Source of the DNA: a bacterium
Lineage (GTDB): Bacteria; Zhuqueibacterota; QNDG01; JABMRT01
Reading direction: 5' to 3'
NCBI GenBank assembly: GCA_011046415.1
Contig: DSAP01000089.1
Location: 4,064-68,063 of the forward strand
DNA: 64,000 nucleotides
Notes under the pieces: model-generated
What the model saw: only the letters and a program-made list of their open reading frames with translations
What the model was told of the DNA's origin: nothing
The model's database searches: none
Made by a program: the position numbers and the translations under genes
Shown: piece after piece, positions 11,883 to 27,169 of the stretch
How positions within the stretch are numbered: position 1 is the first letter of the stretch
Layout: every line of letters begins with the position of its first letter

Positions 11883-13814
11883 TCAGTCGGTAATCTGCTG
11901 TTTCGCAAAAGCCAGTGCCCCGCCTGCCCGCAGGATCCGGACGTCCCGTCCGGACAAATTGTGAAGGACGCGAATGTCGGTTCCCTGTGTCTCGTTTCTC
12001 AGCATCATCCTGCCGGAATCCAGGCCGGAGGTGTCGATCGTCACGGTGTCGTCCTGTGCGATCGTTTCGTAGTCTCCCTCGTCCTCGAACACGAGAGGGA
12101 GGATACCGAAATTAATCAGATTGGCCAGATGGATCCGGGCGAATGATTTGACGACGACCGCCTTCACGCCGAGCGCCATGGGGGCCAGTGCCGCGTGTTC
12201 CCGGCTCGATCCCTGTCCGTAATTGGCGCCGCCCACGACGATGCCGCCTCCGGCTTCCCGTGCCCGTTTGGGGAAGGTGGGGTCCACCGCCTCGAACACA
12301 TATTCGGATATCGCGGGGATGTTGGACCGCAGCGGAAGGATTTTCGCCCCCGCGGGCATGATATGATCGGTCGTGATGTTGTCGCCGACCTTGAGGAGCA
12401 CCGTTCCCCGGACCGGATCGGACAGGGGTCCCTTGATCGGCAGCGGCTGGATATTCGGCCCGCGCTGGATGACGACCCTCTCCGGCGCATCAGACGGGAG
12501 GAGGATCATGGCATCGTCCACGGGAAAAGTTTCGGGGGTGCGGACCTGAACCGGCTCCATGCCCAGGTCGCGGGGATCCGTAATTTCACCGGTCAGGGCC
12601 GCCGCGGCCGCCGTCTCCGGGCTGCACAGATAAACCCTGGCGCTCTTGGTGCCGCTGCGTCCCGAGAAATTCCGGTTGAAGGTGCGCAGCGAAACCGAAT
12701 CGGTCGGGGGCGAGAACCCCATGCCGATACACGGGCCGCACGCGTTCTCAAGGATGCGGACGCCCGAGGCGACGATGTCTTTCCACTGACCGCCGTCGAT
12801 CAGGGCGGTCAGGACCTGCCGGGATCCGGGAGACAGCGCGGCCGAGACACCGGGATGGATTTTGCGTCCTTTCAGCATGGCGGCGATCATGGCCACGTCC
12901 CGGAAGCTTGAATTGGTACAGCTGCCCATGGCCACCTGATGAACCTTCGTCCCCTTGAGAGAATGCACAGGCACCACGTCATCCGGTGAATGCGGCCGGG
13001 CGATCAGGGGCTCCACGGCGGACAGATCGATTTCGAGTACCTCGTCATAGTCCGCATCCGGGTCCGCCCCCAGCGGGAGGTAATGTTCGTCCCGGCCCTG
13101 GGCCCTGAGAAAGATCCGCGTCATCTCGTCGCTCGGAAAAAGCGAGCTGGTGGCTCCGAGTTCGGCCCCCATGTTCGTGATCGTGGCGCGCTCGGGAACG
13201 GTCAGCGTCTCCACACCGGGGCCGGAATACTCCATCACTTTACCGACACCGCCTTTGACGGTGAGCCTCAGGAGGATTTCGAGGATGACGTCCTTGGCCG
13301 AAACGAACGGCCGGAGCCTGCCGGTCAGACGGACATTCACGATCTTGGGCATGACGAGGTGAAACGGCCGTCCGGCCATGGCCAGGGCGATGTCGAGTCC
13401 GCCCGCGCCGATCGCCAGCATGCCGAGTCCGCCGCAGGTCGGGGTGTGGCTGTCGGATCCGAGCAGCGTCTTTCCGGGAAGTCCGAACCGCTCGAGATGG
13501 ACCTGATGGCACACACCATTTCCGGGACGCGAAAAGCGTATCCCGTATCGGGATGCGATGGTCTGGAGGAACAGATGATCGTCCGCATTTTCGAATCCGG
13601 ACTGGAGGGTGTTGTGATCGACGTAGCTGACTGAAAGCTCTGTGCGTATCCGGTCGAGCCCCATGGCCTCGAACTGAAGATAAGCCATGGTGCCGGTCGC
13701 GTCCTGGGTCAGGGTCTGATCCACACGGATAGCAATCGGGGAACCCGCAATGGATTCCCCGCTTATCAGATGACCCGTGATGATTTTCTGTGTCAGATTC
13801 TGTGGTATCATCAT
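11883..13814 (-). CDS. Aconitase-family hydratase (fused catalytic and swivel domains, about 640 aa). It is probably an aconitate hydratase, given the adjacent icd.
   Basis: Motifs [33 protein letters not shown] and [17 protein letters not shown]. Start trimmed to MMIPQNL, where the ATG overlaps the upstream TGA as ATGA. Confidence 0.75.
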
Positions 13815-14482
13815 CCATTTCCGCGGCCTGCGATGGCCTCGCGTTGTTTTTGGGAATTCAGATGCATCTTGCGCAGCAGTTTCCAGATCGTCAGCTTCCC
13901 GACCCGGATAAATCCGTACCGGTCCGTGTCGAGTTCCCGGGCGATCTGGCCGTGTCCCCATGAAGGGTGATCCAGCGCGATCTTGCGGATTTTTTCTTCG
14001 AGTCCTTCAGGAACATCCTCATCGGCTCCCTCCGAAGTCCGGATTTCCGTTTCCGCGTTTTCGGGTTCCTCTTGAACGGAATCAAGCTCTGCGGACTCTT
14101 CCTCGATGAAAGTTCGTGCTCCGTCCGCGCGATTGAAATCCCGGATCGCCGCCTCGACCGAATCATAGGCTTTGAGTATATAATGGAATTCGAGGAGTTC
14201 GAATACTTCGTATACGTCCGGAATCATGTTGGCCAGCTTGAGGTCACCGCCGCGCTCCCGGATTCCTTTGATCTCGCTGATGAAGATTCCCCAGCCGGCG
14301 CTCGAAATATAATCCACGTTCCGGAGATCGATGATGACGCGGAAGACACCCGATTTGAGCAGAGAATCCAGAGCGCGTTCGAGCTCTGAGGATGTGGTGG
14401 TGTCGATGTATCCGCCCACCTTGATGATCGAAATATCCTTTTGGGTCCCCGTTTTCTCTACAGAAACTTGAATGCCTTCCAT
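13811..14482 (-). CDS. STAS-domain anti-sigma-factor antagonist (SpoIIAA/RsbV-like) with a C-terminal transposase-type HTH extension
   Basis: STAS core with the phosphorylatable-Ser motif NVDYISSAGWG. Then an acidic linker and ALDHPSWGHGQIARELDTDRYGFIRVGKLTIWKLLRKMHL, an HTH_32-like sequence. Start taken at MEGIQVSV. Confidence 0.75.
   Translation of the reverse strand: MEGIQVSVEKTGTQKDISIIKVGGYIDTTTSSELERALDSLLKSGVFRVIIDLRNVDYISSAGWGIFISEIKGIRERGGDLKLANMIPDVYEVFELLEFHYILKAYDSVEAAIRDFNRADGARTFIEEESAELDSVQEEPENAETEIRTSEGADEDVPEGLEEKIRKIALDHPSWGHGQIARELDTDRYGFIRVGKLTIWKLLRKMHLNSQKQREAIAGRGNG
13814..13993 (-). other. HTH_32-like (IS3/IS481 transposase N-terminal type) DNA-binding module appended to the STAS protein
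   Basis: About 45% identical over about 55 aa to the HTH segment of the neighbouring kinase/phosphatase protein (the HPxYG..I..EL..xKYGF signature). Confidence 0.6.
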
Positions 14483-14556
14483 TTTCATCTCCTTAAAAAA
14501 ATTATCATTATATAACATAATGACACAACGAAATTTAATAGAAAATCACACCATTG

Positions 14557-17500
14557 TCAACTTTTTTTCTGATAAACCGCCCTCTGCCGGATAAGCCGCT
14601 GCATCCGTTTAATGCGTTCCACGATATCGCCGCGCATGGGATCGCGCTTTAAAACCTCTCCCCACTGCCAAACCGCCCTCTTATAATCTCCCTGATTGGC
14701 GTAGATGACCCCCAGATTTTCGAGGATATGGACATTGTCCGGCATCAGCTCGCGGGCGGCCGTATACGCACGCTTGGCCTTTTCGAGCTGCCCCAGACGA
14801 AAATAGGCATCGCCCTGGGCATGGTAGGCTGCACCGAATTTCTGGTCGCATGCGATGGCCTTGTTGAACTCTTCGATGGCCCGAGCAAAGAGACCTTCCT
14901 GGTAAAACCACTGGCCGGATTCCAGAAACCGCATCCGGTTGAGCCGCCGGGCATTCTCCGGGTTGGCCTCCAGGATGGCCGGTTGCCGAGTCTCCAGATC
15001 CGACCCTTCACCGAGAAGGGAATCCGTCCATATCTCCATGTCCGTCTCGTCGAAAATCTCTCCGGTTATTCCGGATTCTTTCCGGCCCGAATCCTGGTTT
15101 TCCTCGCCGATCAATTCATCTATCAGAGATTCCTGCGAACCATCGGATAAAAACCCGGACATCAGGGGAAAAAACGCCGGATCATCCCCGGATTCTGTAA
15201 CCGCTTCCGGCAATACATCGCCACTGTCGTCTCCTGCGGCGAGCGGGTCGTCAAACGAGTCATCCATCCGTATCAGGAGACCGGAAGAATCATCAACGAG
15301 TGATTCAAACGAGAAGTCATCCCGGGGATCAGAGGACGGCTCACCCATCCTCTCAGTCAGCGCCTCGTCGATGTTTTCGGGGTGGGGCTGCTCGGATTCG
15401 GATTCGACGTCCAGTTCTTCCCAATCGGCTTCCATGGCTGAAATTTCCTCGTCATCGCCGGCGGACTCTCCGTCGTCTTCGGATGCGATGCCGGTGAAAT
15501 CGCGTTCGATCGCTTCCGCAAGGTCCTTGTCTCCGGGCGGCTGGACGGTCACTTCCGGTGTCTCCTGCACGGAAGGATGTTCTTCTGCTTCCTTATGTTC
15601 GGGTGGGGCGCCGCGTGAAACGGCGATCTCAGGTTGTTTTTCGGCCGGTTTTCCCTGGAGGTGATCCGTTTCGGGCGTCTTCTTTTCGGGCAGAGACGTT
15701 CCGGGCGACGGTTTCGAAGGGGCGGGCTTGCGGAGTGTCGGCGAAATAATAACCCGACCGTCCAGCGTCAGCATGGGCGTCCCCGGTGTTTTCATCCGTT
15801 TTCCGCGTCCGCCCCGCTCCACGAAGGCCATGCGGAGTTCCTTGGTATTGAGACGGTTTCGCACCAGTTCTTCGTATAACCGGGCTTCATCGATCTGGAA
15901 AAAGCCGTATTTTTCCGTGTTGAGCTCGTCACGGATCCGTTTCGGTCCGTACTCGGGATGGGTCTTGATTACATCAAAAATCTTGGCCTTGTCTTCGATG
16001 GCGATGTGTTTTTCTTCGATGAGGGAGCGGCCGACCCGGTCTTTCATTCCCTGCTCGCCGTTTTTTTCATAGAGTTTTTTATATTTATAATAAGTCGACG
16101 TGGAAACGCCCGCCTTCTCACAGGCCTCCTTGACTGTCATGCCTTCCTTCTGCACCATGCGAAGCAGATCCGTATGGATATTCAGAAACACCTCTTCCAC
16201 GCTCATCTTCTCGCGGATCGCAACCAGGGTGATGTCATCGCTCTGCGGCTCCCCGCCCGTAAAGGTATAGATCTCCTGTTTGATGCTCTCGACGAGGGGT
16301 TCCACCTTCTGATCGCCCGCCTTGCGGATCACGGACAAAAACCGCTCGTCTCCGAACCGGTTCCGGTTGATGTCCATCGCCTCGGTGATGCCGTCCGTAT
16401 AGACGATCAGCACATCATCCGGACGAAGCTGAAGCGTGTCCGACTCGATGGAATTTCTGAACAAAGTCTGGTCGGGCAGGTTGATTCCGATCGGAAAACC
16501 GCGCGGGTTCAGATAGTAGCTTTTCTGGCTTTGACCGCGGTAAAGAATCATGGGATTATGACCCGCGCTGGCATAGTTGATCGTCCTGCGTTTCGAGTCG
16601 AGGATGATGTAAAACACGGTGACGAACATGCCGCGCTTCATGTCGTTGATCACGAAATCATTGACTTTGGACAGCACATCGGCCGCATTCTTGTTGCCCC
16701 GCGCCTCCGTCCTGAGCGCCGTCCGAATCATGGTCATGACCAGTGATCCGGGCACCCCTTTGCCGGACACATCCGCGACCACGATTCCCAATGAATCCCT
16801 GTCCACCCTGAAAAAATCGAAATAGTCACCGCCCACCTCCTTGGCGGCCTCGTAGCAGGAGGCGATCTCATAGCCATCGATTTCAGGGAAGGTCGCCGGA
16901 AGCAGGGTGTGCTGGATTTCCTGGGCCACCTGCATTTCTTTCTGGAGCCGTTCCTGTTCCGCCAGATTTTCCTGGGATTTTCTGAATTTCTCCGTGATCT
17001 CGTTGAAGGCCTGGGCGATCTCGCCAATCTCGTCGTTCCCATCGAATTCCATCTCGTCCCGGACCTCGCCGTGGCCCAGATCGCGGACCCATTTGGAGAG
17101 TTTCTTGAAGGGACTCATGGTAAGATAGACGAGTCCGAATGTGAAGAGATATCCGAAAGCAAGCGCGAGAATCGCCTTGATAAGAGTAAATTGACGTTCC
17201 GATTTGATCGTTGCATCGATCATCTGTTTGTTCATCAACACATGGACGGTACCCAGGCGGATATTCCGGTTGTCCACCTGCTTGAGGGCCGGTTCGACGA
17301 CATCATACACCCTGACCCCGTCATGCTGAAACTGATACACATGATCACGGATCGGGTTCGCCCCGGCCGGCAAGATGAATTCATTGTGAAGCGCTTCGAG
17401 GTTGACGACTCCCTGAATTACGTTGATCGTATCCACGACGATGATCTCGACGATGCGGGGATGATATTCCCTGTGAATATCGGTCACGATCGTGGACAAG

Positions 17501-18153
17501 TCCCACCAGTTTGGGGGGTCGTAAGAAAGATACTCGATACTCTGGTGGCCGACGGACCTGGCCAGCGTTTCACCGGAAGCGAGCGCATCATTCCTGATTT
17601 TATTGTCAAGATGAAGATAGGTCCAGATGAACCAGATCAGCATCAACGCCGTCAGGAGCACCGAAGCGAGCGCGGAAAACCGGGTTTTCATGGAAAACGG
17701 AATCTCCGGAGTACGGAGCCGTTTCATGCCGGTCTTTCTCGATTTGGTGAGCCGGAGTTCATTGCCTTCCGGAAGTTTCCGGTAATCGATTTTGTCGATC
17801 ACACGCCGGATAATAAATATCCCGAGGCCGCCTTTCTTGCCGATATGCACGTAACGCTGGAGATCCGGGTCTTTCACCTGTCTGGGATCAAAGGAGTGCC
17901 CCTGGTCCACCAGCGACACCGTCACGTCCTTATCCCGGATTATCATCCGCATGGTGATCGCGCCTTCCCAGTCGCGGTAGGCGTGCCGGATGATGTTGGT
18001 GCCGGCCTCGTCGATTGCCAGTTTGAAGGCGTTGATCACCTGCTCTGAGATCCCGTGTTTCCGTCCGAAATGCATCACGGAATCGCGCATTTCACCCAGA
18101 TGATCGATCTCGGCAGGGAAGGTCCATTCTTCTTTGATGACGCGTTTGAACAT
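14557..18153 (-). CDS. Multidomain partner-switching regulator: RsbW-like GHKL Ser kinase, TM, periplasmic sensor, TM, HAMP, PP2C/SpoIIE phosphatase, transposase-type HTH (HTH_28 plus HTH_32), polyacidic region, TPR repeats
   Basis: Residues 1-145 are HATPase_c-like (AIDEAGTNIIRHAY, GGLGIFIIRRV). There are two hydrophobic helices. HAMP is NDEIGEIAQAFNEITEKF. PP2C is GGDYFDF..VADVSGKGVPGSLVMT..GHNPMILY..IVYTDGITEA. HTH is MTVKEACEKAGVSTSTYYKYKK followed by THPEYGPKRIRDELNTEKYGFFQ. A D/E-rich stretch of about 170 aa follows, then C-terminal TPRs. Confidence 0.8.
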   Translation of the reverse strand: MFKRVIKEEWTFPAEIDHLGEMRDSVMHFGRKHGISEQVINAFKLAIDEAGTNIIRHAYRDWEGAITMRMIIRDKDVTVSLVDQGHSFDPRQVKDPDLQRYVHIGKKGGLGIFIIRRVIDKIDYRKLPEGNELRLTKSRKTGMKRLRTPEIPFSMKTRFSALASVLLTALMLIWFIWTYLHLDNKIRNDALASGETLARSVGHQSIEYLSYDPPNWWDLSTIVTDIHREYHPRIVEIIVVDTINVIQGVVNLEALHNEFILPAGANPIRDHVYQFQHDGVRVYDVVEPALKQVDNRNIRLGTVHVLMNKQMIDATIKSERQFTLIKAILALAFGYLFTFGLVYLTMSPFKKLSKWVRDLGHGEVRDEMEFDGNDEIGEIAQAFNEITEKFRKSQENLAEQERLQKEMQVAQEIQHTLLPATFPEIDGYEIASCYEAAKEVGGDYFDFFRVDRDSLGIVVADVSGKGVPGSLVMTMIRTALRTEARGNKNAADVLSKVNDFVINDMKRGMFVTVFYIILDSKRRTINYASAGHNPMILYRGQSQKSYYLNPRGFPIGINLPDQTLFRNSIESDTLQLRPDDVLIVYTDGITEAMDINRNRFGDERFLSVIRKAGDQKVEPLVESIKQEIYTFTGGEPQSDDITLVAIREKMSVEEVFLNIHTDLLRMVQKEGMTVKEACEKAGVSTSTYYKYKKLYEKNGEQGMKDRVGRSLIEEKHIAIEDKAKIFDVIKTHPEYGPKRIRDELNTEKYGFFQIDEARLYEELVRNRLNTKELRMAFVERGGRGKRMKTPGTPMLTLDGRVIISPTLRKPAPSKPSPGTSLPEKKTPETDHLQGKPAEKQPEIAVSRGAPPEHKEAEEHPSVQETPEVTVQPPGDKDLAEAIERDFTGIASEDDGESAGDDEEISAMEADWEELDVESESEQPHPENIDEALTERMGEPSSDPRDDFSFESLVDDSSGLLIRMDDSFDDPLAAGDDSGDVLPEAVTESGDDPAFFPLMSGFLSDGSQESLIDELIGEENQDSGRKESGITGEIFDETDMEIWTDSLLGEGSDLETRQPAILEANPENARRLNRMRFLESGQWFYQEGLFARAIEEFNKAIACDQKFGAAYHAQGDAYFRLGQLEKAKRAYTAARELMPDNVHILENLGVIYANQGDYKRAVWQWGEVLKRDPMRGDIVERIKRMQRLIRQRAVYQKKS
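15814..16161 (-). other. Transposase-derived HTH_28 plus HTH_32 module embedded in the kinase/phosphatase protein
   Basis: Residues about 665-780 of the 1198-aa protein. No DDE catalytic domain follows. Confidence 0.6.
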
Positions 18154-18172: not shown

Positions 18173-20092
18173 TTACGGTTTCCTGAACGTTTGCAGCTTC
18201 TGCTTGGCGCCTTCGATCGCCTGAATCAGATTCACGTTGTGAGGATCTAGGATTAACGCCTCCTCCCAGACCTGAAGCGCCTCTTCATACCGTCCGTCGC
18301 GATATAGCCGGAGGCCCTCGTTCATTTTTCCGCGCACCTCTCTTTGTTCTTCTTCTGAGAGCGGTCTTTCATCCTTCGCGGAACGGGCCATGGCATTGCG
18401 GTACAGAGTCAGGATCCTGTCATTGTCCGGCTGATACTCCAGCGCCCTCTTGAAGAACGGGACCGCCTCCTCAAACTGTCCCCTGTTGAATCTCTCGATA
18501 CCGGCCTGGACATTGGATACATAATCCACGGCCTGGGCAAGACGGCGGATTTCCTGGTTCAACAGGTTTTCAAGGGAAGGAATGCCGACCGCCTGAGACC
18601 GGGCCTGTTCGAGTACGTTCCTGGCTTCAGACAGGTTTTCCTGCTGTACGAGGTTTCGGGCCCGCGAGATCGCCCGGTTCACCTGGCGTTCGAGTTCACC
18701 CCGGGCCTGCTGAATATAACGGATCAGGATTGCATTTCCGGGATCCACGGCCAAGGCCTCACGCCATCTTTCTATGGCCCGCTGATAATCGCCCCGCTCC
18801 ATGGCCTGATTGCCCTCCTTGAGTCGGGCGTTGACCAGTTCAAGATTCTGCCTGATTTCCAGCCTTTCCCGTTCCTCCCGGAGGATGGAATCCTGGCGTG
18901 CCTGCTGCCATTCCAGTTCACGCTCTTCCGTTATCCGAAGGAATTCCTGAGCCCGGGTATTGTTCCGGTCTTCCCTGAGCACACGGTTGAATTCGATTCG
19001 CGCGTTAAAATAGTCGCCCTTGTGGAGGTACTCCTGTCCGGACTGCAGGGCGTCGCGGATCCGTTTCCGGCGGTCCTGTTCCATCTTTTCCTGCAATTGG
19101 ACTTGCATTTCTTCCTCATGCCGGAGGCGTAATTCCTCCCTCGTTTCGGGGAGGCTCTTTCCGATATGGACGCTGAGTGAAAACAGATGGCTTCGCCTGA
19201 AAAAATCGGATTCGGACATTTTTGCCGTGGCATAATCAAACTGAATCGCTCGGTACCGAATGCCTCCCCCGAATGAGAGGCTGCCCTGATCGACTCCCAT
19301 GCGGAAGAAAACCAGGTGGTCGAAGGCATATTCACCGCCGAGGTGATAATGCAGTTTGCGGTTTTTAAGCCAGTCGACATCAGAGAGGAATACCAGCCTG
19401 TCCTGTCCGTCCCTCAATGAAAAAGCCTTGGCGAGGCCGATACGGGTCACGGTCGGCAGGGTTTCCGTGCGTGTCCCGAGTTTCATGCGCGGATTCACGG
19501 CATGCACGAGATTCATACCCAGGTGCAGCCCGTCCAGAAATCCTCCATTCCCGGGGAATGTATAATGGATCCCCGTGTCCAGGCCAAAGCCGTTTGTCGC
19601 ATACTGGCTACCCATCACCTGTCTGTTGACCTCCAAATTGAGGCCGACGGCGAGCCCGCGATAAACCGGGAGGGCGTAAGCCAATGAAAGTTTTCCCCAC
19701 CAGTAATCAAAATCTCCCGTGGACACCGGGACGCCCTGGATCTCCTCATATCCCGGGATACCGTCCGTGCCGACCCGTGAGAATCCGAATCCGAAGACAC
19801 CCGCATTCAGGGTCGGATGGACATATCCGATAAAATGGTATTGAACTCCCTCGAACAGCGTGGTCTGACTGAACAGGGCGTTTTTGCTCTGAACCAGCAG
19901 CATCCCCGCCGGATTCCAGGAAAAAGCGGAGGCATCTTCAGGAAAGGCGACGGATGCTCCGCCCAGACCCAGGCCGCGGGCGCCGATCCCGATGGAAAAC
20001 GGGCTTTCCCTGCCGGCGTCTCCATTTACTTCGGCCTCGGAAACACCCGTCAGCAGCCCAAAAAGACAGACAAAGACAAGTTTCAAACGCAT
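18173..20092 (-). CDS. FadL/PorV-family outer-membrane beta-barrel (about 310 aa) fused to an about 330-aa TPR / coiled-coil C-terminal extension
   Basis: Signal peptide, then GARGLGLGGASVAFPEDASAFSWNPAGM, a FadL/PorV N-terminal hatch-like motif with NPAG. There are alternating-hydrophobic beta strands and the barrel ends ..GGIRYRAIQFDYA. The C-terminal half is rich in TPR-like and charged coiled-coil repeats. Confidence 0.55.
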   Translation of the reverse strand: MRLKLVFVCLFGLLTGVSEAEVNGDAGRESPFSIGIGARGLGLGGASVAFPEDASAFSWNPAGMLLVQSKNALFSQTTLFEGVQYHFIGYVHPTLNAGVFGFGFSRVGTDGIPGYEEIQGVPVSTGDFDYWWGKLSLAYALPVYRGLAVGLNLEVNRQVMGSQYATNGFGLDTGIHYTFPGNGGFLDGLHLGMNLVHAVNPRMKLGTRTETLPTVTRIGLAKAFSLRDGQDRLVFLSDVDWLKNRKLHYHLGGEYAFDHLVFFRMGVDQGSLSFGGGIRYRAIQFDYATAKMSESDFFRRSHLFSLSVHIGKSLPETREELRLRHEEEMQVQLQEKMEQDRRKRIRDALQSGQEYLHKGDYFNARIEFNRVLREDRNNTRAQEFLRITEERELEWQQARQDSILREERERLEIRQNLELVNARLKEGNQAMERGDYQRAIERWREALAVDPGNAILIRYIQQARGELERQVNRAISRARNLVQQENLSEARNVLEQARSQAVGIPSLENLLNQEIRRLAQAVDYVSNVQAGIERFNRGQFEEAVPFFKRALEYQPDNDRILTLYRNAMARSAKDERPLSEEEQREVRGKMNEGLRLYRDGRYEEALQVWEEALILDPHNVNLIQAIEGAKQKLQTFRKP

Positions 20093-20119: not shown

Positions 20120-20362
20120 TTATTTTACGAAAGCCATTTTGAATTTAAATATCTCTCCATTTCCGGTCTGCATGATCAGATGGTAGACGCCGTTCAAGAC
20201 CTCCCAGCCCCTGTCATTGCAGCCGTCCCATGTCCAGCGGTTCACCTGGCCGGCCGACACCTCCGATTCGGCGACGTCATATGACTTGACGAGCTGGCCG
20301 ACAAGGGTATAGATTCTAAAGGAAACGGAGGTCGGTTCCGGAATGTAGTAATAGATCGTGGC
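20120..20362 (-). other. Coding segment for the T9SS-type (Por_Secre_tail / FlgD-Ig-like) C-terminal sorting domain of the giant protein
   Basis: Matches the general TIGR04183-type pattern (NPF...I.Y.I..V..IY.L.GQLV....G...W.G.....G..GVY.......K...K). Confidence 0.55.
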
Positions 20363-23300
20363 GGTCTCCCTGCCCGGCTCACCGAACGGATTGGGACTGC
20401 TCCACAATCGGGCTTCTTCGTTTGGATTGAAAATCCGGAGTGGCGCCGAAGGAATGCTTTCCAGTTCGTCTCCTGTCGGACTCTTGACGAGTACGTCACG
20501 GTCTGAAGCGGCTTCTCTCGCCGAAATGGCCTGTCCGTCCGGCACGCTCACCCTGAAAAAGGGGACGGTCTGTGACTCCGCGATGCGTCCGCGAATCAGA
20601 ATTTTTTTGCTCTGATTGTAAGGAATTTCGAGACCGGACAGGGAAATCCGGACCGGGTTGGCCTCCGGAATCTGGGCCGTCGTTCCGTAAATGTCCGGCC
20701 CATTCATCTCGACCGCCTCGAGACGGGACACCGCCGACCGTGGCCCGATATCTTCGCCTTCCCGTCCCGTGAGGGTCAGCCAAATCTCGCGGATGATGAT
20801 GGGATAGGCACCGGTTTCTCCCCGGTTCTGAAACTCCAGGCCGAGCAGGGGGACGTTGCTTTGCCCGGGCGTCAGGGACTGATTTGCCCCGGACAAGACC
20901 AACGGCGTCACAGAGAGCCAGGTTGATTGTAACCGGACGGCGACGGCATGATAATCCCGTCCGACAAATGCAGGTTGATCGGTATTCTCATCAACGGGAA
21001 TCTTCGTGAGCCGGGATTCGATCTGGGCGGCCGCGGTGGAAGGTTGTGACGGGGCTTTAATCGTCCAGAAGGCCTCGCCGCCGGAGAGTGTTTGCGCCAG
21101 GACCTCCCGTGTGGTATATTGAGGTGGAAGCGCGAGGAGCGAGACTTCGATGTCACCGATGGTTTGGGCTTCCCCGGAATTCTGAACCGCGGCCCGGACC
21201 ACGAATTCCTGTCCCAAAGAAACCGTGCCGTATTGTGCAGCCTCCGGCGGACTGTCGATCGTCAAGAATAGCGCAAGATCGGCCTTGGAAACGGTGTTCA
21301 GGGGGAGTGCATTCGGTACTCCTCCGATGGGAACCGCGGGTTGCAATGCATCAACACCCCTTGCCGTAACGATGAGAGTGCCTTCGGATACAGGCGTCGT
21401 CGGAGCCGTGACCAGCCAGGTCACCGTATCTCCGCTCGCGCTCTGGGTCAGGTTGTTTTTGGTGTGATATCCGAAGGGGAGTTCGATCCGTGCCGTGATT
21501 TCCGTGACATTGTCGGAAATCATTTCTGTCCGGACCACGAAGGACTGTCCCGTGGACAGGATACCGTCCGAGGCGCCCGACGGTGCGGAAATGGACGTGA
21601 CGGATCTCAGCCGGCTGGCGATGGTGGTAATCGGCGCCTCGGCAAATTGATCTGTGACGACAACCCGGACATCCGTGTTTTTATCGATCGGATACTGGAT
21701 CAGATCGACGCGGACCTTGTCGTTTGTCGAAGGTTCATTCGGGGCCCTGAGTCGCCATTCTGCCGGAACCTCAGGAGTGATACCGGCCGAATCCGACGCC
21801 GAGATCAACTGGTATCGATCGGGCCAGCGTATCCTCACGCGTCCCTCATTCTTTAATGCGGAAGATCCCTGCTTGAGCAGTCTGCCCTTCACCTTGAATT
21901 CCTGATTGACAGAAACCACACCGTCGGCCGGTTCGGTTTCTATACTCAGAGAGAGAGAGGCTGGACTCTGGACAAATACCACGGCGGTGGGATCGCTGGC
22001 CTCTCCGATGGGTGCGTCATCCGTTCCGTTCTCCCGTTTAGCCCCCTGAATCCGGGACGTAAAGGTTTCTCCGGAGAGGTTTTCCTGATTTGCCGCCAGT
22101 ACGTCAAACCACACCGAGTCACGTCTGGAGGGTTCAAGGCGGGTTAACAGGACCTGCGGATTTTCGATGGCCGAAAGGCCATTGGATTCCATCCGGACGT
22201 CGATGTTGCGGATCGTGAAACTCAAACCGTTCTCGACGATCACCAAGACACGAAAAGCCTGTCCGGTATTCACGAAGCCGTTTTTTGACTCGGTGGTGTT
22301 TACTGTCGCGATTTCCGTCGAGATAATCCGGAAATCCGGTTTGGACTCGATAAAGACCTGCGCCTCGTTCTCTGCCCTGAGCGTCCGCAGGTCGTTGCGG
22401 TCTTTGCCCCCGGCCCGGACGCGGATCCGGACATCTCCTCCGTAGGTACCGGTCGTATTCACATGATAGATCAGCGAATCGGTCACCCCGGGGGCGAGGA
22501 TCAGGCCGCCTCCTTTCAATGCGTTCGGGGGAACGACTTTATAATCCGTCTGATAAATGCCGCCCACGAAGAAGGCGACGCTGTCGGCAGAGGGTCTCGA
22601 GAGTTCGATCGCCGACCCGCCTGTGTTGCGGACGGCGACCTTGATGTGCCACGGATCGGTTTGACCGCCGAGAAGAAGAGTCTGTGAAGTCGAGACGGAC
22701 AATACCTGAAAGACCGCAGGATTCTGGATGGTCGCCGTGGCCGTCTTGTCTGGAGAATTCCCGTCCTCCAGGAAAAGGGCCGTGTTTTCGGCAAATCCGC
22801 TTGCAGAAACGGTGAATGTCTCCGATCCGGGAAGGGTCGACGCCGTCACCGGAACGGTCAGAGAATGAACCTGCCCACCGGATAATGTTCCGATATAATG
22901 TGCCCTGACAAAAGATGAGGTGCCGGAACTTCCGATTTCCACCTCCACATCCCGCATGGCGTCTTCGCCGAGGTTTTCGACCTGGAGGAAGAGATCGAAA
23001 ACCTGCCCGCGGTTCACATACGGGCTGTTCGGGGCGCGGTTGGTGACTTGCCGGACGATCAGATTGGCCGGTGCTTCGATCAGGACTTGCCCGTGACCGC
23101 CGTCGCGCGTGTCTGTCTCGAGTCGCCGCCCTGTAGTCATTTCGAGGCCTGCAACATAGGCGTCGATCCTGCAAAGACCGGCGGCCTGATCGGTCGTCCG
23201 TGTCACTTCAAATATCAGACTGTCGGTTTCACCTCCCTCAAGAACCCAGTCACCGGTCCAGGAAGGCGGATAGGTCAACTCCCATGTCTGGGGAGCGCCC

Positions 23301-26300
23301 AGAGAAAATTCCAGATAGCTCGCGGTCGTACTCGAGTCGATCGCCGTCGCGCTTCCTCCGGTGTTGGTGGCCACGACGGCCACACGCCAGGGCATGACCT
23401 GGCCCCGAGAGACCTCGGCCTGGGACGGCTTGACCATATGGATCACCAGATTCGCCGGCGTCTGTACCAGGAGGTTGGTAAATGCATCATCCGACAGGGT
23501 GACCCCGGAGCCCAGCAGATACACGAAAAGCCGAATCGTGGCGCCCCCCGCATCGCTGCCGGTGTGAAGAACGGGAATCAGGAGCGAATCGATCCCGTTT
23601 CCGGGCAGCGTCTCCTCGGCGCTGCCCCAGAACGCCGTCGGCAGCTGGAGGGTGTAATCGTGGCGCACGATACCGGCCACATTGAATTGAAGCCGGACAC
23701 TGTCGAGACGGACCTCTGATCCGCTGAAATTGCGGACGGTACAACGGAGATACCAGACCGAATCCTGATCGGTTGTGACGGATTGAATGCCGGTGGCCCT
23801 GTCTTTCCCGACCGCCCTGAAATCGGAGACCAGAATGCCCGGAGAAAGCACCACATCGAACAAATTGGATTCCGAAAAAATAAAACCGCCTGTCTGAGTC
23901 ACTCGCATTCGGTTGGCCGTCCTGGCCTGATGCACCGTGACGCCGGTCGTCAACACGCCGTTGCTGAAATTCGGGCTGACATCGGGTCTGATCGTGCCTG
24001 TCAGATCCGAAATATCCACGGTTTGGGTGAAATTGGTCTTGACATTGCCGTAAGCGTCTTCTGCGGTAAGCGTGGTTGAAAAGGGAACCCCCACGATCTG
24101 ATCCCCGATATGCTGGATCGCAAATCGGTTCAACGCCGCGGGCAGCACGTTGAACAGATTGGAACTTCCCCTTTGCACGCCCCCCTGGTAAACCATGATT
24201 CTCACATCATTCCTGGCCCCTGTAATTCGAACCGTTTGTGTGAGGAGGCCGGCGCTGAACGATCCGGTCGCAGCCGGCGTCAGCGTGCCTGTGCTGTCGG
24301 AAAGGGAAACCTGTCCCGCAAACTGGGTCACGATATTCTGATATGTGTCGAGCGCGGTCAGGTATATCTGGAAGTCTGTACCCGCCATCTGCGGACTGGC
24401 CACCGGGGCCACAGAAATGGTCTGAACCGACCCCGGATTGACATTGAAGACCTCCGAGACGCCGCTTTTCCCGAGTCCGCTCACGGTAAGCCGGTTCTGT
24501 GACTGGCTCTTCGTGATGGTTACCGTGGCGGTCCCCACACCGGATGAGAAGGTGATCTGTTTCACATCATTGGTCCCGGTAAGGTCTGCGAGATTGACCG
24601 TTTCATTGAAGCCGGTGACGAGATTGTTGTTCACGTCATAGGCGCGGACGGTCACGGAGAATCCCTGACCCGCGGTCTGCGGCGTCGATATCGGATCAAA
24701 TGTGAAATGGTCCACGGTCGTCGGGATCACGTTGAAGGTATTCGAGATGGCGCTTTGCGTACCACCGTCCCGGACGACCGTGATCCGGTCATTCGTTTGG
24801 GTCTGGGTCACCGAAATCGTGCCAGACCAGATGCCGCTTTGAAAATCATCGCTCTGAGACCGTGAAAGCGATCCCGTGCCGGTATGGCCGATGTTGACCC
24901 GGTTTCCCGGTCCGCTAAACCCTGTCACGGTGTTGTCATACGCATCCTGCGCGGTCACGGTGAGGCTGAAGGGCACGCCCGGCGTCTGGGTGGCGATCTG
25001 TGCGATGGCGAAATGATCCAGTGTATTGGGCGCCACGTTGAAGGCGTTCGATGTCCCCGTATGGCCGGCGCCGTCGTCCGCCGTGACCCGGACATCGTTG
25101 ACCGCCTGTGTAATCGTCAGGGTGACCGTACGGGTGCCGTTCGAAAAGGCGCCGGAAACAGACGGCGAGATCACGACGGGAGAGGAACCCGACGCGGCTG
25201 AAAGCGGAACCGTGCCGTTAAACGACTGTGAGACATTTCCGAAGGCGTCGCGTGCCGTGATCGTGACCGGAAAACCGGTTCCCGCCGTTCGCGGACTGGG
25301 GACTGCCGAAAACTCAAACCGGCTGACGCCCGCTCCGGCCACATTGAATGGGTTGGAAGTCCCGCTTTTACCCAGCGCCGTCGCGGTCAGGACATTGCTG
25401 TTCATGGCTTGCGAGATCGAAATCGTACCCGTCCATGTCCCGTCGACGAGGGTGACCTGCTGCGGCGAATGCGTTCCCGTCTCATCACGGATATTCACCA
25501 CCTGGTTGGTGAAACCGGTCACAATATTGTTGTTGACATCTTCGGCGCGGATTGTTACGGAAAAACCGACGCCCGCCGTCTGGTTCACGGGAATCGCGGA
25601 AATCACGAAATGGTCGACCGTACTCGAAATCACATTGAAGGCGTTCGACTGGCCGGTGTGTCCGGACCCGTCGTTCACCGTAATCCGGTCATCCGTCTGG
25701 ATTTGATTGATACGCAGGTTTCCGGTCCAGACACCGCCAGTAAAATCGCCGCTCTGGGTGGGAATGAGGGTTCCCGTACCCGTATGGGAAATGTTGACCC
25801 GCCGGCCTGAGCCGGAGAAGGAAGCGGCCGTGTTATCGAAGGCATCCCTCGCCGTGATGGTCACCAGAAAAAATTCTCCCGCCGACTGGGTGCTGATGTT
25901 GGACAGGGTGAAATGATCCACGGCCGCGCCGTTGACATTGAAGGGACCGGATGTCCCGGTGCGGCCGCCTCCGGAAGCCTGGATATATATGTCCGTGTTC
26001 GCCTGGGTAATCCGGACATTCCCCGTCCAGACGCCCGAGGAGAAATTTTCTGTGCTCGCCGAAGATGTGGCATCAACCGTGACCGTACCCGTCTTCTCGC
26101 TGAGGGTCGCCGGATTCGTATAATCTGTCTTGATATTGTCGTAACCGTCATAGGCCGTGATGGTCAGGCTGAACGGAACACCGGCCGTCTGCGGACTGGA
26201 GATGGGGCCGAATACAAATTGATCCAGGGCTCCCGGTAACACATTGAATGCGGCGGATGATCCGGAACTCGTACCGGATGTCGCCAGGATCGCATTGGAA

Positions 26301-27025
26301 GCGGCCGTTTTCGTCACACGCACGTTACCGCTCCAGATGCCCGAAGAAAATGCGGTGGTCTGATTCGTCCCGGTCCCGGTCACGATGACCGTACCGGTTT
26401 GGTCCGATAGGGTCACGGCGCCGGAAAAGCCATCAGCCCGGTTGCCGAACGCATCCCGCGCTTCGATGTCGGCCTGAAAGTCCGTCCCGGCGACCGCGCC
26501 GGTCCCCGTAACCGAAGCCGGAAGCGAGACCTGAAATGTTTGTACGGGCCCCGGATCAAGCGTGGCGGACGCGGAGGTCCCCCGTTCAATGGGTGTATTA
26601 TCGGCCTCCCGGGTGGTGACGATTACCTGGAAATTACCCGAAGCGGCCCGGTTGGTCACCACCGCGAACTGGATCGTTTCTGCGCCGGCCGTCGCCGGAC
26701 TCCCTGTTCCGTTCCTCTGAGCGATCAGGGAGTCACCTGCGGATGTGACAGACAGGCCGCCATCCAGGGTAGCCGACGAAACGATGCTGACCGTCGAAAG
26801 ATCGAATCCTGATGGATAGCGGACGACAATCCGTCCGTCGGAGGGGATGGTGTCGGCATGGTTGAAAGAGACGGTGTGTATGCTCCGTTGACCCACCGTC
26901 GCATCATCGAGGGTGATCTGCACGGCTGTCAGTGTCTGGGCCAACACACCGACAGGAAACAGGAGGAGAAAGGTGGTTAAGGACAGCCCGATTTGTGTTT
27001 TCGCAGTCATTTTCATAAATGTCAA
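20120..27025 (-). CDS. Giant (2301 aa) secreted cell-surface protein with at least 9 tandem about 100-aa Ig-like repeats, further CARDB-like repeats and a T9SS-type C-terminal sorting domain
   Basis: TTG start, then a signal peptide (MTFMKMTAKTQIGLSLTTFLLLFPVGVLAQ). Repeat units end in ..FNV and share the pattern DHF..I..QTAG.PFS.T.TA.D..NN.VTGF. Later repeats read ..APANLIV..V.N.GG.A. The C-terminus reads PNPFGEPGRETATIYYYIPEPTSVSFRIYTLVGQLVKSYDV..WDGCNDRGWEVLNGVYHLIMQTGNGEIFKFKMAFVK. Confidence 0.8.
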   Translation of the reverse strand: MTFMKMTAKTQIGLSLTTFLLLFPVGVLAQTLTAVQITLDDATVGQRSIHTVSFNHADTIPSDGRIVVRYPSGFDLSTVSIVSSATLDGGLSVTSAGDSLIAQRNGTGSPATAGAETIQFAVVTNRAASGNFQVIVTTREADNTPIERGTSASATLDPGPVQTFQVSLPASVTGTGAVAGTDFQADIEARDAFGNRADGFSGAVTLSDQTGTVIVTGTGTNQTTAFSSGIWSGNVRVTKTAASNAILATSGTSSGSSAAFNVLPGALDQFVFGPISSPQTAGVPFSLTITAYDGYDNIKTDYTNPATLSEKTGTVTVDATSSASTENFSSGVWTGNVRITQANTDIYIQASGGGRTGTSGPFNVNGAAVDHFTLSNISTQSAGEFFLVTITARDAFDNTAASFSGSGRRVNISHTGTGTLIPTQSGDFTGGVWTGNLRINQIQTDDRITVNDGSGHTGQSNAFNVISSTVDHFVISAIPVNQTAGVGFSVTIRAEDVNNNIVTGFTNQVVNIRDETGTHSPQQVTLVDGTWTGTISISQAMNSNVLTATALGKSGTSNPFNVAGAGVSRFEFSAVPSPRTAGTGFPVTITARDAFGNVSQSFNGTVPLSAASGSSPVVISPSVSGAFSNGTRTVTLTITQAVNDVRVTADDGAGHTGTSNAFNVAPNTLDHFAIAQIATQTPGVPFSLTVTAQDAYDNTVTGFSGPGNRVNIGHTGTGSLSRSQSDDFQSGIWSGTISVTQTQTNDRITVVRDGGTQSAISNTFNVIPTTVDHFTFDPISTPQTAGQGFSVTVRAYDVNNNLVTGFNETVNLADLTGTNDVKQITFSSGVGTATVTITKSQSQNRLTVSGLGKSGVSEVFNVNPGSVQTISVAPVASPQMAGTDFQIYLTALDTYQNIVTQFAGQVSLSDSTGTLTPAATGSFSAGLLTQTVRITGARNDVRIMVYQGGVQRGSSNLFNVLPAALNRFAIQHIGDQIVGVPFSTTLTAEDAYGNVKTNFTQTVDISDLTGTIRPDVSPNFSNGVLTTGVTVHQARTANRMRVTQTGGFIFSESNLFDVVLSPGILVSDFRAVGKDRATGIQSVTTDQDSVWYLRCTVRNFSGSEVRLDSVRLQFNVAGIVRHDYTLQLPTAFWGSAEETLPGNGIDSLLIPVLHTGSDAGGATIRLFVYLLGSGVTLSDDAFTNLLVQTPANLVIHMVKPSQAEVSRGQVMPWRVAVVATNTGGSATAIDSSTTASYLEFSLGAPQTWELTYPPSWTGDWVLEGGETDSLIFEVTRTTDQAAGLCRIDAYVAGLEMTTGRRLETDTRDGGHGQVLIEAPANLIVRQVTNRAPNSPYVNRGQVFDLFLQVENLGEDAMRDVEVEIGSSGTSSFVRAHYIGTLSGGQVHSLTVPVTASTLPGSETFTVSASGFAENTALFLEDGNSPDKTATATIQNPAVFQVLSVSTSQTLLLGGQTDPWHIKVAVRNTGGSAIELSRPSADSVAFFVGGIYQTDYKVVPPNALKGGGLILAPGVTDSLIYHVNTTGTYGGDVRIRVRAGGKDRNDLRTLRAENEAQVFIESKPDFRIISTEIATVNTTESKNGFVNTGQAFRVLVIVENGLSFTIRNIDVRMESNGLSAIENPQVLLTRLEPSRRDSVWFDVLAANQENLSGETFTSRIQGAKRENGTDDAPIGEASDPTAVVFVQSPASLSLSIETEPADGVVSVNQEFKVKGRLLKQGSSALKNEGRVRIRWPDRYQLISASDSAGITPEVPAEWRLRAPNEPSTNDKVRVDLIQYPIDKNTDVRVVVTDQFAEAPITTIASRLRSVTSISAPSGASDGILSTGQSFVVRTEMISDNVTEITARIELPFGYHTKNNLTQSASGDTVTWLVTAPTTPVSEGTLIVTARGVDALQPAVPIGGVPNALPLNTVSKADLALFLTIDSPPEAAQYGTVSLGQEFVVRAAVQNSGEAQTIGDIEVSLLALPPQYTTREVLAQTLSGGEAFWTIKAPSQPSTAAAQIESRLTKIPVDENTDQPAFVGRDYHAVAVRLQSTWLSVTPLVLSGANQSLTPGQSNVPLLGLEFQNRGETGAYPIIIREIWLTLTGREGEDIGPRSAVSRLEAVEMNGPDIYGTTAQIPEANPVRISLSGLEIPYNQSKKILIRGRIAESQTVPFFRVSVPDGQAISAREAASDRDVLVKSPTGDELESIPSAPLRIFNPNEEARLWSSPNPFGEPGRETATIYYYIPEPTSVSFRIYTLVGQLVKSYDVAESEVSAGQVNRWTWDGCNDRGWEVLNGVYHLIMQTGNGEIFKFKMAFVK
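24030..26580 (-). repeat. Intragenic tandem array of diverged about 300-nt units encoding Ig-like repeats (protein identity about 35-50% between units)
   Basis: Repeats are evident in the translation. The DNA copies are diverged rather than exact. Confidence 0.55.
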
Positions 27026-27169
27026 CCTTCAATTTTGCGGATTGAATAAGCACTCGCAAATTAAGTACCAGCTAATCATAGGAAAGAACAAAAAGCCTTA
27101 AACCTTTAAAATACAATAACATAACAGATGCTTGTCCCTGTCATGAATCCTCCGGGCGATGGCCAGAAA

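Follow-up and report, generated by a model that had tools for sequence, protein, structure and literature searches.

A transposase-type helix-turn-helix module in both members of a predicted STAS partner-switching pair

In a stretch of 64,000 nucleotides of the bacterial contig DSAP01000089.1 (assembly GCA_011046415.1; "the window" below means this whole stretch), two neighbouring genes on the minus strand encode a small STAS protein and a large membrane sensor that combines an RsbW-type kinase with a PP2C phosphatase domain. In addition, both proteins carry a helix-turn-helix (HTH) domain that resembles the N-terminal part of insertion sequence (IS) transposases. A first-pass annotation had noticed this shared domain and had read it as a transposase HTH exapted into a signalling pathway. 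Our results showed that the two domains are homologous, that they are maintained together with their genes across a bacterial lineage and that they stand without a transposase catalytic core. Tentatively, the HTH tail of the STAS protein may serve as a nucleic-acid-binding output of the pair.

The STAS and sensor proteins and their shared domain

The longest open reading frame (ORF) of the STAS gene reaches position 14518; its true start is Met13 (MEGIQVSV, nucleotide 14482). This start is backed by the database protein P0001 (223 aa, 100% identity), and both the MEGIQVSV start and a GGAG ribosome-binding site are kept in all 80 related loci. In addition to its Pfam match (Table 1), the protein scores 63.3 bits with the NCBIfam model ant_ant_sig (cut-off 53.45), and the AlphaFold2 (AF2) model of the STAS domain superposes on the anti-sigma antagonists 4hyl, SpoIIAA (1th8_B) and RsbV (6m36) with template modelling (TM) scores of 0.82-0.85. 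Within the motif VDYISSAGWG, S60 and S61 show no variation across 38 sequences. Ser61, which a manual alignment to 'DSSGLG' equates with Ser58 of SpoIIAA, is the likely phospho-acceptor. The STAS domain is also the best-conserved part of the system (mean pairwise distance 0.22, against 0.29 for PP2C and 0.33 for the kinase), a level of conservation that would suit a protein with several binding partners.

The linker that follows the STAS domain is markedly acidic, with 15 D/E against 2 K/R in the 40 residues from 119 to 158. It leads into the C-terminal HTH-like tail, where AF2 places helices at residues 161-171, 177-184, 196-205 and 211-220 with a predicted local distance difference test (pLDDT) score of about 90. 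Across the family the tail has a mean net charge of +5.7, with +3.0 on the third helix, where the conservation of K201, R204 and K205 reaches 80% or more. In the source genome, the stop codon of the STAS gene overlaps the start codon of an aconitase gene (ATGA, 13811-13814, minus strand).

From N- to C-terminus, the sensor consists of an RsbW-type kinase, a transmembrane segment, a sensor region, a second transmembrane segment, HAMP, PP2C, an IS481-type HTH module, an acidic region and TPR repeats. The two hydrophobic segments lie at about residues 157-181 and 325-347 (hydropathy peaks) and bracket a variable region of about 140 aa; HAMP occupies residues 344-388 (Pfam E=4.5e-8). A Pfam scan of the sensor gave no match to the receiver domain (Response_reg), the two hydrophobic segments and HAMP being present instead.

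The HTH module of the sensor has two parts. In the first, the HTH_28-like helix that the first-pass annotation had placed ahead of the shared segment was recovered by Pfam, HTH_28 matching residues 664-709 with 34.6-35.9 bits against a gathering threshold of 25. HTH_Tnp_1 also exceeds its cut-off there (28.7 bits), while LZ_Tnp_IS481 and HTH_32 match more weakly. This first HTH has a conserved recognition helix (VSTSTYYKYKK) and a mean net charge of +3.2. AF2 models the 149-aa module segment as two helical HTH units linked by a long helix; in the first HTH and the long helix into which it runs, the helices span segment positions 28-35 and 39-66. The second HTH is followed by a conserved basic tail, in which K142, G145, T146 and P147 (segment numbering) are invariant in the module alignment of the KSB1 clade. 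The basic tail sits in a low-confidence, probably disordered stretch and is absent from orthologues whose profile match ends at about position 135. Strongly acidic low-complexity stretches adjoin the HTH domains in both proteins; they could be auto-inhibitory or DNA-mimicking segments.

The shared segments were then located exactly. The STAS peptide running from ALDHPSWGHG to QKQRE corresponds to residues 169-215 of 223 (nucleotides 13838-13978, minus strand), and the sensor peptide running from VIKTHPEYGP to TKELR to residues 728-774 (15832-15972, minus strand). The helix ahead of the latter, MTVKEACEKAGVSTSTYYKYKK, covers residues 672-693 (16075-16140, minus strand). BLASTP aligns the two segments over 58 aa without gaps at 33% identity (E=2e-11). 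Among the ORFs of 80 other genomes, a phmmer search with the 73-aa STAS tail retrieves the matching region of 65 sensor orthologues, and the reverse query with the sensor copy retrieves 41 STAS proteins. When the two family alignments (194 and 173 sequences) were compared by hhalign, they matched over 67 columns with a probability of 98.8% and E=1.3e-16. The BLASTP and hhalign values exclude chance similarity, and the claim that the C-terminal 60 or so residues of the STAS protein and residues 720-780 or so of the sensor are related is confirmed as homology.

Table 1. Features of the STAS/sensor locus (window positions) and matching promoter elements of related loci (locus positions)
Feature	Position	Strand	Details
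STAS-plus-HTH protein gene	13811..14482	minus	223 aa, stop codon included in coordinates; STAS, acidic disordered linker, HTH-like C-terminus
STAS domain	14123..14482	minus	residues 1-120; motif VDYISSAGWG; Pfam STAS E=2.7e-18
Acidic disordered linker of STAS protein	14015..14122	minus	residues 121-156; pLDDT <50
STAS-tail HTH_21/HTH_32-like domain	13814..14014	minus	residues 157-223; four helices, strongly basic
Sigma-70-type promoter of STAS gene, TTGACA-N17-TAAATT	14532..14560	minus	matching motif <200 nt upstream of start in 62/79 loci
Membrane sensor gene	14557..18153	minus	1198 aa; identical database protein P0121
HATPase_c_2, RsbW/SpoIIAB-type serine kinase	17743..18120	minus	residues 12-137; Pfam E=4.3e-27; NCBIfam RsbW E=2.7e-18
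PP2C/SpoIIE phosphatase domain	16213..16800	minus	residues 452-647; Pfam SpoIIE E=9.7e-51
First HTH of module, HTH_28/HTH_Tnp_1 type	16018..16164	minus	residues 664-712; continues into long helix
Second HTH of module, homologue of STAS tail	15808..16002	minus	residues 718-782; mean net charge -0.75
Conserved basic tail after second HTH, RGGRGKRMK(P/T)PGTPxL (RGGRGKRMKPPGTP)	15769..15816	minus	residues 780-795; mean net charge +5.1
Acidic low-complexity region of sensor	14959..15753	minus	residues 801-1065; 72 D/E vs 17 K/R in 265 residues; no Pfam domain
TPR repeats of sensor C-terminus	14584..14931	minus	residues about 1075-1190; Pfam TPR_2, TPR_16, TPR_11
PorV/PorQ-family outer-membrane protein fused to C-terminal TPR repeats	18173..20092	minus	NCBIfam PorV_fam 95.7 bits, cut-off 90
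Giant protein of about 2300 aa, weak type IX secretion system (T9SS)-type C-terminal sorting domain	20120..27025	minus	FlgD_ig E=5.6e-5; Por_Secre_tail E=0.009
Sigma-54-type -24/-12 element TGGTACTTAATTTGC	27056..27070	minus	31 nt upstream of giant gene; TGGYAY-N4-TTTGC
Sigma-54-type element, locus L086	939-953		
Sigma-54-type element, locus L087	1015-1029		
Sigma-54-type element, locus L088	1052-1066		
Sigma-54-type element, locus L089	1613-1627		
Sigma-54-type element, locus L090	1086-1100		
Sigma-54-type element, locus L091	1003-1017		

Transposase likeness, spread and descent of the module

On the 149-residue module of the sensor (residues 647-795), the NCBIfam model transpos_IS481 aligns segment positions 17-126 (sensor residues 663-771) colinearly with model positions 5-111 of 284 (E=4.4e-17). 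The alignment ends at model position 111, where the rve/DDE core would start, and its score is 57-62 bits against a cut-off of 224. All 31 sampled orthologous modules match transpos_IS481 (best E=1.5e-19), and transpos_IS3 likewise. In the STAS protein, HTH_21 (PF13276; gathering threshold 28.1) scores 26.8 bits on the whole protein and 28.8 on the isolated tail, which also matches transpos_IS3 positions 130-186 (E=1.5e-4), transpos_IS481 positions 42-114 (E=0.018) and HTH_32. Of 38 relatives, 22 match HTH_32 and 18 match HTH_21 at E<=0.01. The resemblance to the N-terminus of IS3/IS481 transposases described in the first-pass annotation therefore stands: profile matches assign a complete IS481-type module to the sensor and, in a borderline but consistent manner, only the second sub-domain of that module to the STAS tail. 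Automated annotation already flags the module, as some JGI protein names read 'RsbU/TPR/transposase'.

Pfam and NCBIfam scans of both proteins found no rve/DDE domain, no IS-like terminal inverted repeats were found around the two genes, and the module profile, run on all six frames of the window, recovered these two ORFs and no third copy. These results agree with the earlier claim that catalytic domain and IS ends are lacking. A tblastn search of the 136-aa module against 72,556 plasmids returned nothing at E<=1e-3, so the link to transposases is seen only at the profile level. A profile search of Protein Data Bank (PDB) sequences gave spurious acetyltransferase matches only.

We counted relatives of the STAS protein by a pattern scan with one genome per species, and then compared the best 80 loci. 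At least 506 species genomes contain a relative, their titles referring mostly to candidate division KSB1 and to Calditrichota/Caldithrix, and the best 80 all align through the HTH tail. In 66 of these 80 loci, a sensor orthologue lies 4-263 nt upstream of the STAS gene and its HTH region is covered; most of the remaining 14 have too little flank. The arrangement varies in a few genomes. In one sub-clade (L025, L038 and L055) the STAS-HTH gene keeps its promoter and stands downstream of unrelated genes, with no sensor gene upstream; in L058 the sensor gene is located 3.1 kb upstream of the STAS gene, and in L091 rho comes next after the sensor gene. The module itself is kept in all 120 closest database orthologues of the sensor, including those too diverged for Pfam. 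Across six close genome pairs, Nei-Gojobori ratios of nonsynonymous to synonymous substitution rates (dN/dS) lie at 0.01-0.14 in the STAS tail, at 0.06-0.13 in the first and 0.02-0.15 in the second HTH of the sensor, and at 0.01-0.06 in the enzymatic domains.

A HMMER search with the module profile against 1.84 billion representative proteins gave 1331 matches at E<=1e-3, of which the best 150 were inspected. They comprise 77 orthologues, about 25 orthologue fragments and about 40 tandem double-module proteins (among them P0326, P0329, P0330, P0334, P0335, P0345, P0359, P0365 and P0372). The tandem proteins carry two copies at the N-terminus, are in many cases fused to family-2 glycosyltransferases (GT2), reach about 1500 aa and belong, by name, to Patescibacteria, plus one Bathyarchaeia metagenome-assembled genome (MAG). 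None of 19 that were scanned has an rve domain. Thus, among the best 150 of the 1331 matches, the nearest non-orthologous relatives are not transposases but Patescibacteria glycosyltransferases with tandem copies. One tandem-module locus (L085, 6001-9423) sits in a polysaccharide-type gene cluster.

By hhalign, the tandem-module family matches the STAS tail with E=1.6e-17 and the sensor module with E=1.3e-26. The STAS tail is as near to the tandem GT2 modules as it is to the sensor copy (E=1.3e-16), so that these scores do not show that one operon copy arose from the other by direct duplication. On these profile alignments, both operon copies are assigned to one rve-less module family. We also considered the STAS protein as a regulator of HTH-bearing GT2 glycosyltransferases and discarded this idea, as those enzymes come from Patescibacteria and a Bathyarchaeia MAG, not from KSB1.

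Single-copy genes, conserved synteny and purifying selection across the lineage are what exaptation predicts, and the exaptation proposed from the first reading of the sequence is supported by all of them. We conclude that the module is an ancient, fixed, non-mobile exaptation; we infer the direction from transposase to host from abundance and colinearity rather than from a tree. IS481/IS3 transposases are far more widespread than the lineage-restricted fusions. The opposite view, that the module is a generic bipartite HTH which was inherited jointly with IS481/IS3 transposases, or which these took from their hosts, appears improbable to us. It draws on the observations that, beyond orthologues and their fragments, the best 150 of the 1331 matches are mainly rve-less tandem GT2 proteins, that the STAS tail is no nearer to the sensor copy than to the tandem modules, and that HTH_28, HTH_23 and HTH_32 are broad Pfam families. 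However, the curated IS481 model is colinear with the module over both sub-domains and the linker helix (5-111) in 31 of 31 members, LZ_Tnp_IS481 and HTH_Tnp_1 match as well, transposases may rank just below the best 150 matches, and the greater abundance of the transposases noted above also speaks against it.

A third possibility, in which the HTH domains are the remnant of a recent IS insertion, part of a decaying or active IS element, or a chance likeness of helical segments, has nothing in its favour except the transposase-family names in Pfam and NCBIfam. It is refuted by the lack of a DDE domain, of inverted repeats and of extra copies, by an architecture and synteny that are the same in dozens of genomes at 50-70% protein identity, by the purifying selection on the HTH parts and by similarity statistics that exclude chance, and we give it practically no credence.

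Gene neighbourhood and promoters

The pair belongs to a four-gene cluster that is conserved in KSB1/Calditrichota and consists of a giant T9SS-type surface protein, a PorV-like protein, the sensor and the STAS protein. Of the 56 loci whose flank is long enough, 53 have the PorV-like gene upstream; the giant gene is present in 45 of 50. As both genes are conserved beside the pair, the signalling switch is probably linked to a type IX secreted surface protein. The immediate neighbours of the pair in the window are the PorV-like gene and the aconitase gene. Adjacency to the latter is not conserved, an aconitase or isocitrate dehydrogenase gene being next to the STAS gene in 11 of 70 loci. No sigma factor or free anti-sigma factor was found among the scanned genes flanking the pair.

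The STAS gene has a sigma-70-type promoter of its own (Table 1), in which the spacer part tttctat is also conserved. Some Calditrichia loci are without this motif, and in these a gap of only about 30 nt separates the sensor and STAS genes. Upstream of the giant gene lies a sigma-54-type element, which is the sole match in the 64-kb window (0.05 expected by chance) and is found at the same position in six of six further loci. A sigma-54 activator was not found in the window by GAFTGA and Walker motifs.

Inverted repeats to which the HTH tail might bind, as suggested by the first-pass annotation, were sought, and no convincing or conserved one was found. A 7-bp inverted repeat downstream of the STAS promoter was dismissed as an operator because it is not conserved in other loci. 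Hairpin-like palindromes after the upstream TPR gene were likewise set aside, as they resemble terminators and show only loose sequence similarity between loci.

A predicted phospho-switch and its relatives

We favour, with somewhat less than even confidence, a phospho-switch of the SypE/SypA kind, with the basic tail of the STAS protein serving as a nucleic-acid-binding output. The kinase domain of the sensor would phosphorylate Ser61 of the STAS protein and its PP2C domain would remove the phosphate, the balance between the two activities being set by the periplasmic sensor/HAMP input. As neither a sigma factor nor a separate anti-sigma factor lies beside the pair, we regard the basic HTH tail of the STAS protein as the output arm. 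The tail would most likely bind nucleic acid (DNA) when released, through the phospho-state of the STAS domain, from the sensor and/or from its own acidic linker. The sensor module, in which the first HTH and the tail are basic and the second HTH is neutral, would hold the same DNA at the membrane, or would park the STAS protein.

Several features are consistent with such a switch. The parts of a partner switch are predicted to be intact, namely the STAS fold, the invariant SS motif, HATPase_c_2 and SpoIIE. As modelled, the STAS tail looks like a DNA-binding domain, with its helical HTH fold, its charge of +5.7, its conserved K201, R204 and K205 and an acidic linker that could mask it; judged by charge, the first HTH (+3.2) and the basic tail (+5.1) of the sensor also look nucleic-acid-friendly. 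In a Foldseek search of the PDB, the leading structural matches of the module, although weak, are the N-terminal DNA-binding domains of the transposase TnsB (probability 0.75-0.85), with the Pax paired domain ranked lower. In a more specific form, which we consider doubtful, the system would be a partner switch without a sigma factor: the STAS protein would be a phosphorylation-gated DNA-binding regulator, the sensor would carry a matching module, and both proteins would meet on the same DNA, where they would assemble or compete. It is even conceivable that a bipartite binding unit is split over two polypeptides, with the sensor contributing its first HTH and the STAS protein its lone second HTH.

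Other observations weigh against a DNA-binding output. For a DNA-binding surface, the neutral to acidic character of the sensor's second HTH is unusual. The phosphorylation of Ser61 and the kinase-substrate relation are suggested only by homology and gene adjacency. No convincing operator candidate was found: DNA conservation upstream of the STAS gene is confined to the sigma-70-type promoter, and the sigma-54-type promoter of the giant gene needs an AAA+ activator, which the system lacks. The Foldseek matches of the module are not significant (best E=0.087). Finally, the IS911 transposase has a multimerisation (M) region located after its leucine zipper and ahead of its catalytic core (PMC2909936), so a homologous domain could act by protein-protein contact.

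This last point leads to a docking or heterodimerisation model, in which the partner of the STAS tail would be either the sensor's second HTH or the first HTH together with the long helix, and no DNA would take part; the pairing would tether the substrate to the kinase/phosphatase or compete with an intramolecular contact. We think this model rather unlikely, though it is the strongest competitor of the favoured one. The same domain is present in both partners throughout the lineage, and at an exposed position of helix 3 the STAS tail conserves a Lys and the sensor copy a Glu/Asp, in line with the overall charges (+5.7 versus -0.75). The sensor second HTH is also more conserved than the STAS tail (mean pairwise distance 0.38 versus 0.58). 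The M region of the IS911 transposase (PMC2909936) falls in the stretch of IS3-family proteins that contains HTH_21, a mapping that is approximate and that we infer. On the other hand, in a mirror-tree analysis of 59 gene pairs the distance matrix of the STAS tail gave its lowest correlation with the second HTH (r=0.42; partial r=0.04 after removal of the kinase/PP2C signal) and, unexpectedly, its highest with the first HTH (r=0.71; partial r=0.54). We treat this analysis as exploratory: evolutionary rate is a confounder, since regions that evolve fast tend to correlate with one another. In addition, the two genes are apart in some genomes (L025, L038, L055 and L091).

If the more specific form without a sigma factor, outlined above, holds, the system would represent a new coupling of serine phospho-signalling to DNA and, in two phyla about which little is known, would control a cluster for T9SS surface proteins. 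To our knowledge, few clear cases of host reuse of transposase domains are known in bacteria. In the present case it is the DNA-binding module, not the catalytic domain, that has been reused, and it is under purifying selection in hundreds of species; the finding also points to a wider DDE-less module family, in Patescibacteria glycosyltransferases. In the literature that we searched, neither a STAS-HTH fusion, nor this pair, nor the tandem-module glycosyltransferases were found to be described, and HTH fusions go unmentioned in a recent review of STAS-only proteins (PMC8256260). The STAS/sensor pair with an HTH on both members is thus apparently an undescribed variant of partner-switching signalling, and the tandem-module glycosyltransferases of Patescibacteria are apparently undescribed as well.

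Among known systems, SypE/SypA of Vibrio fischeri, together with HsbR/HsbA and CrsR/CrsA, likewise has an RsbW-type kinase and a PP2C domain in one polypeptide and a single STAS substrate. Both there and here, the genes adjoin cell-surface or biofilm genes: a polysaccharide locus in the case of SypE/SypA, and the genes of a T9SS-type giant protein and a PorV-like protein in the present one. The syp locus is also sigma-54-dependent, through SypG. The input of SypE is a central receiver domain, whereas here it is a periplasmic sensor with two transmembrane segments, plus HAMP. Moreover, the sensor described here adds an IS481-type HTH module, an acidic region and TPR repeats, and its STAS partner adds an HTH domain. 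SypE phosphorylates SypA on one serine, and the target of SypA is not a known sigma factor (PMC8256260; PMC3610818). Several orphan systems such as SypA/SypE have no assigned output; in the present variant, the DNA-binding-type domain attached to the STAS protein and repeated on the sensor offers a concrete candidate for the output step.

Partner switching is usually described as a set of four components, a STAS protein, a kinase/anti-sigma factor, a phosphatase and a sigma factor. The pair shares with RsbU/RsbW/RsbV and SpoIIE/SpoIIAB/SpoIIAA of Bacillus the STAS fold, the phospho-serine motif, the HATPase_c_2 kinase and the PP2C phosphatase. It differs from them in that kinase and phosphatase are fused and anchored in the membrane, in that both partners bear an HTH, and in that the scanned adjoining genes include no sigma factor or free anti-sigma factor.

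In the N-terminus of IS481/IS3 transposases, first HTH, long helix and second HTH follow one another in the order and at the spacing seen in the sensor module; in contrast to these transposases, the module comes without an rve/DDE core or inverted repeats and lies in single-copy, syntenic genes, within signalling proteins. The Pax paired domain and CENP-B are transposase-derived DNA-binding domains of eukaryotes, in which a transposase-type bipartite HTH has likewise been reused by the host, the fold match of our module to Pax being non-significant. Here, unlike in Pax and CENP-B, the reuse is bacterial and concerns a phospho-signalling pair, with one sub-domain standing by itself on the partner protein. 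Members of this rve-less module family also occur in the GT2 glycosyltransferases of Patescibacteria (P0326, P0345, P0372 and others), which differ from the pair in belonging to another phylum, in carrying tandem copies fused to a membrane glycosyltransferase and in having no STAS, kinase or phosphatase domain.

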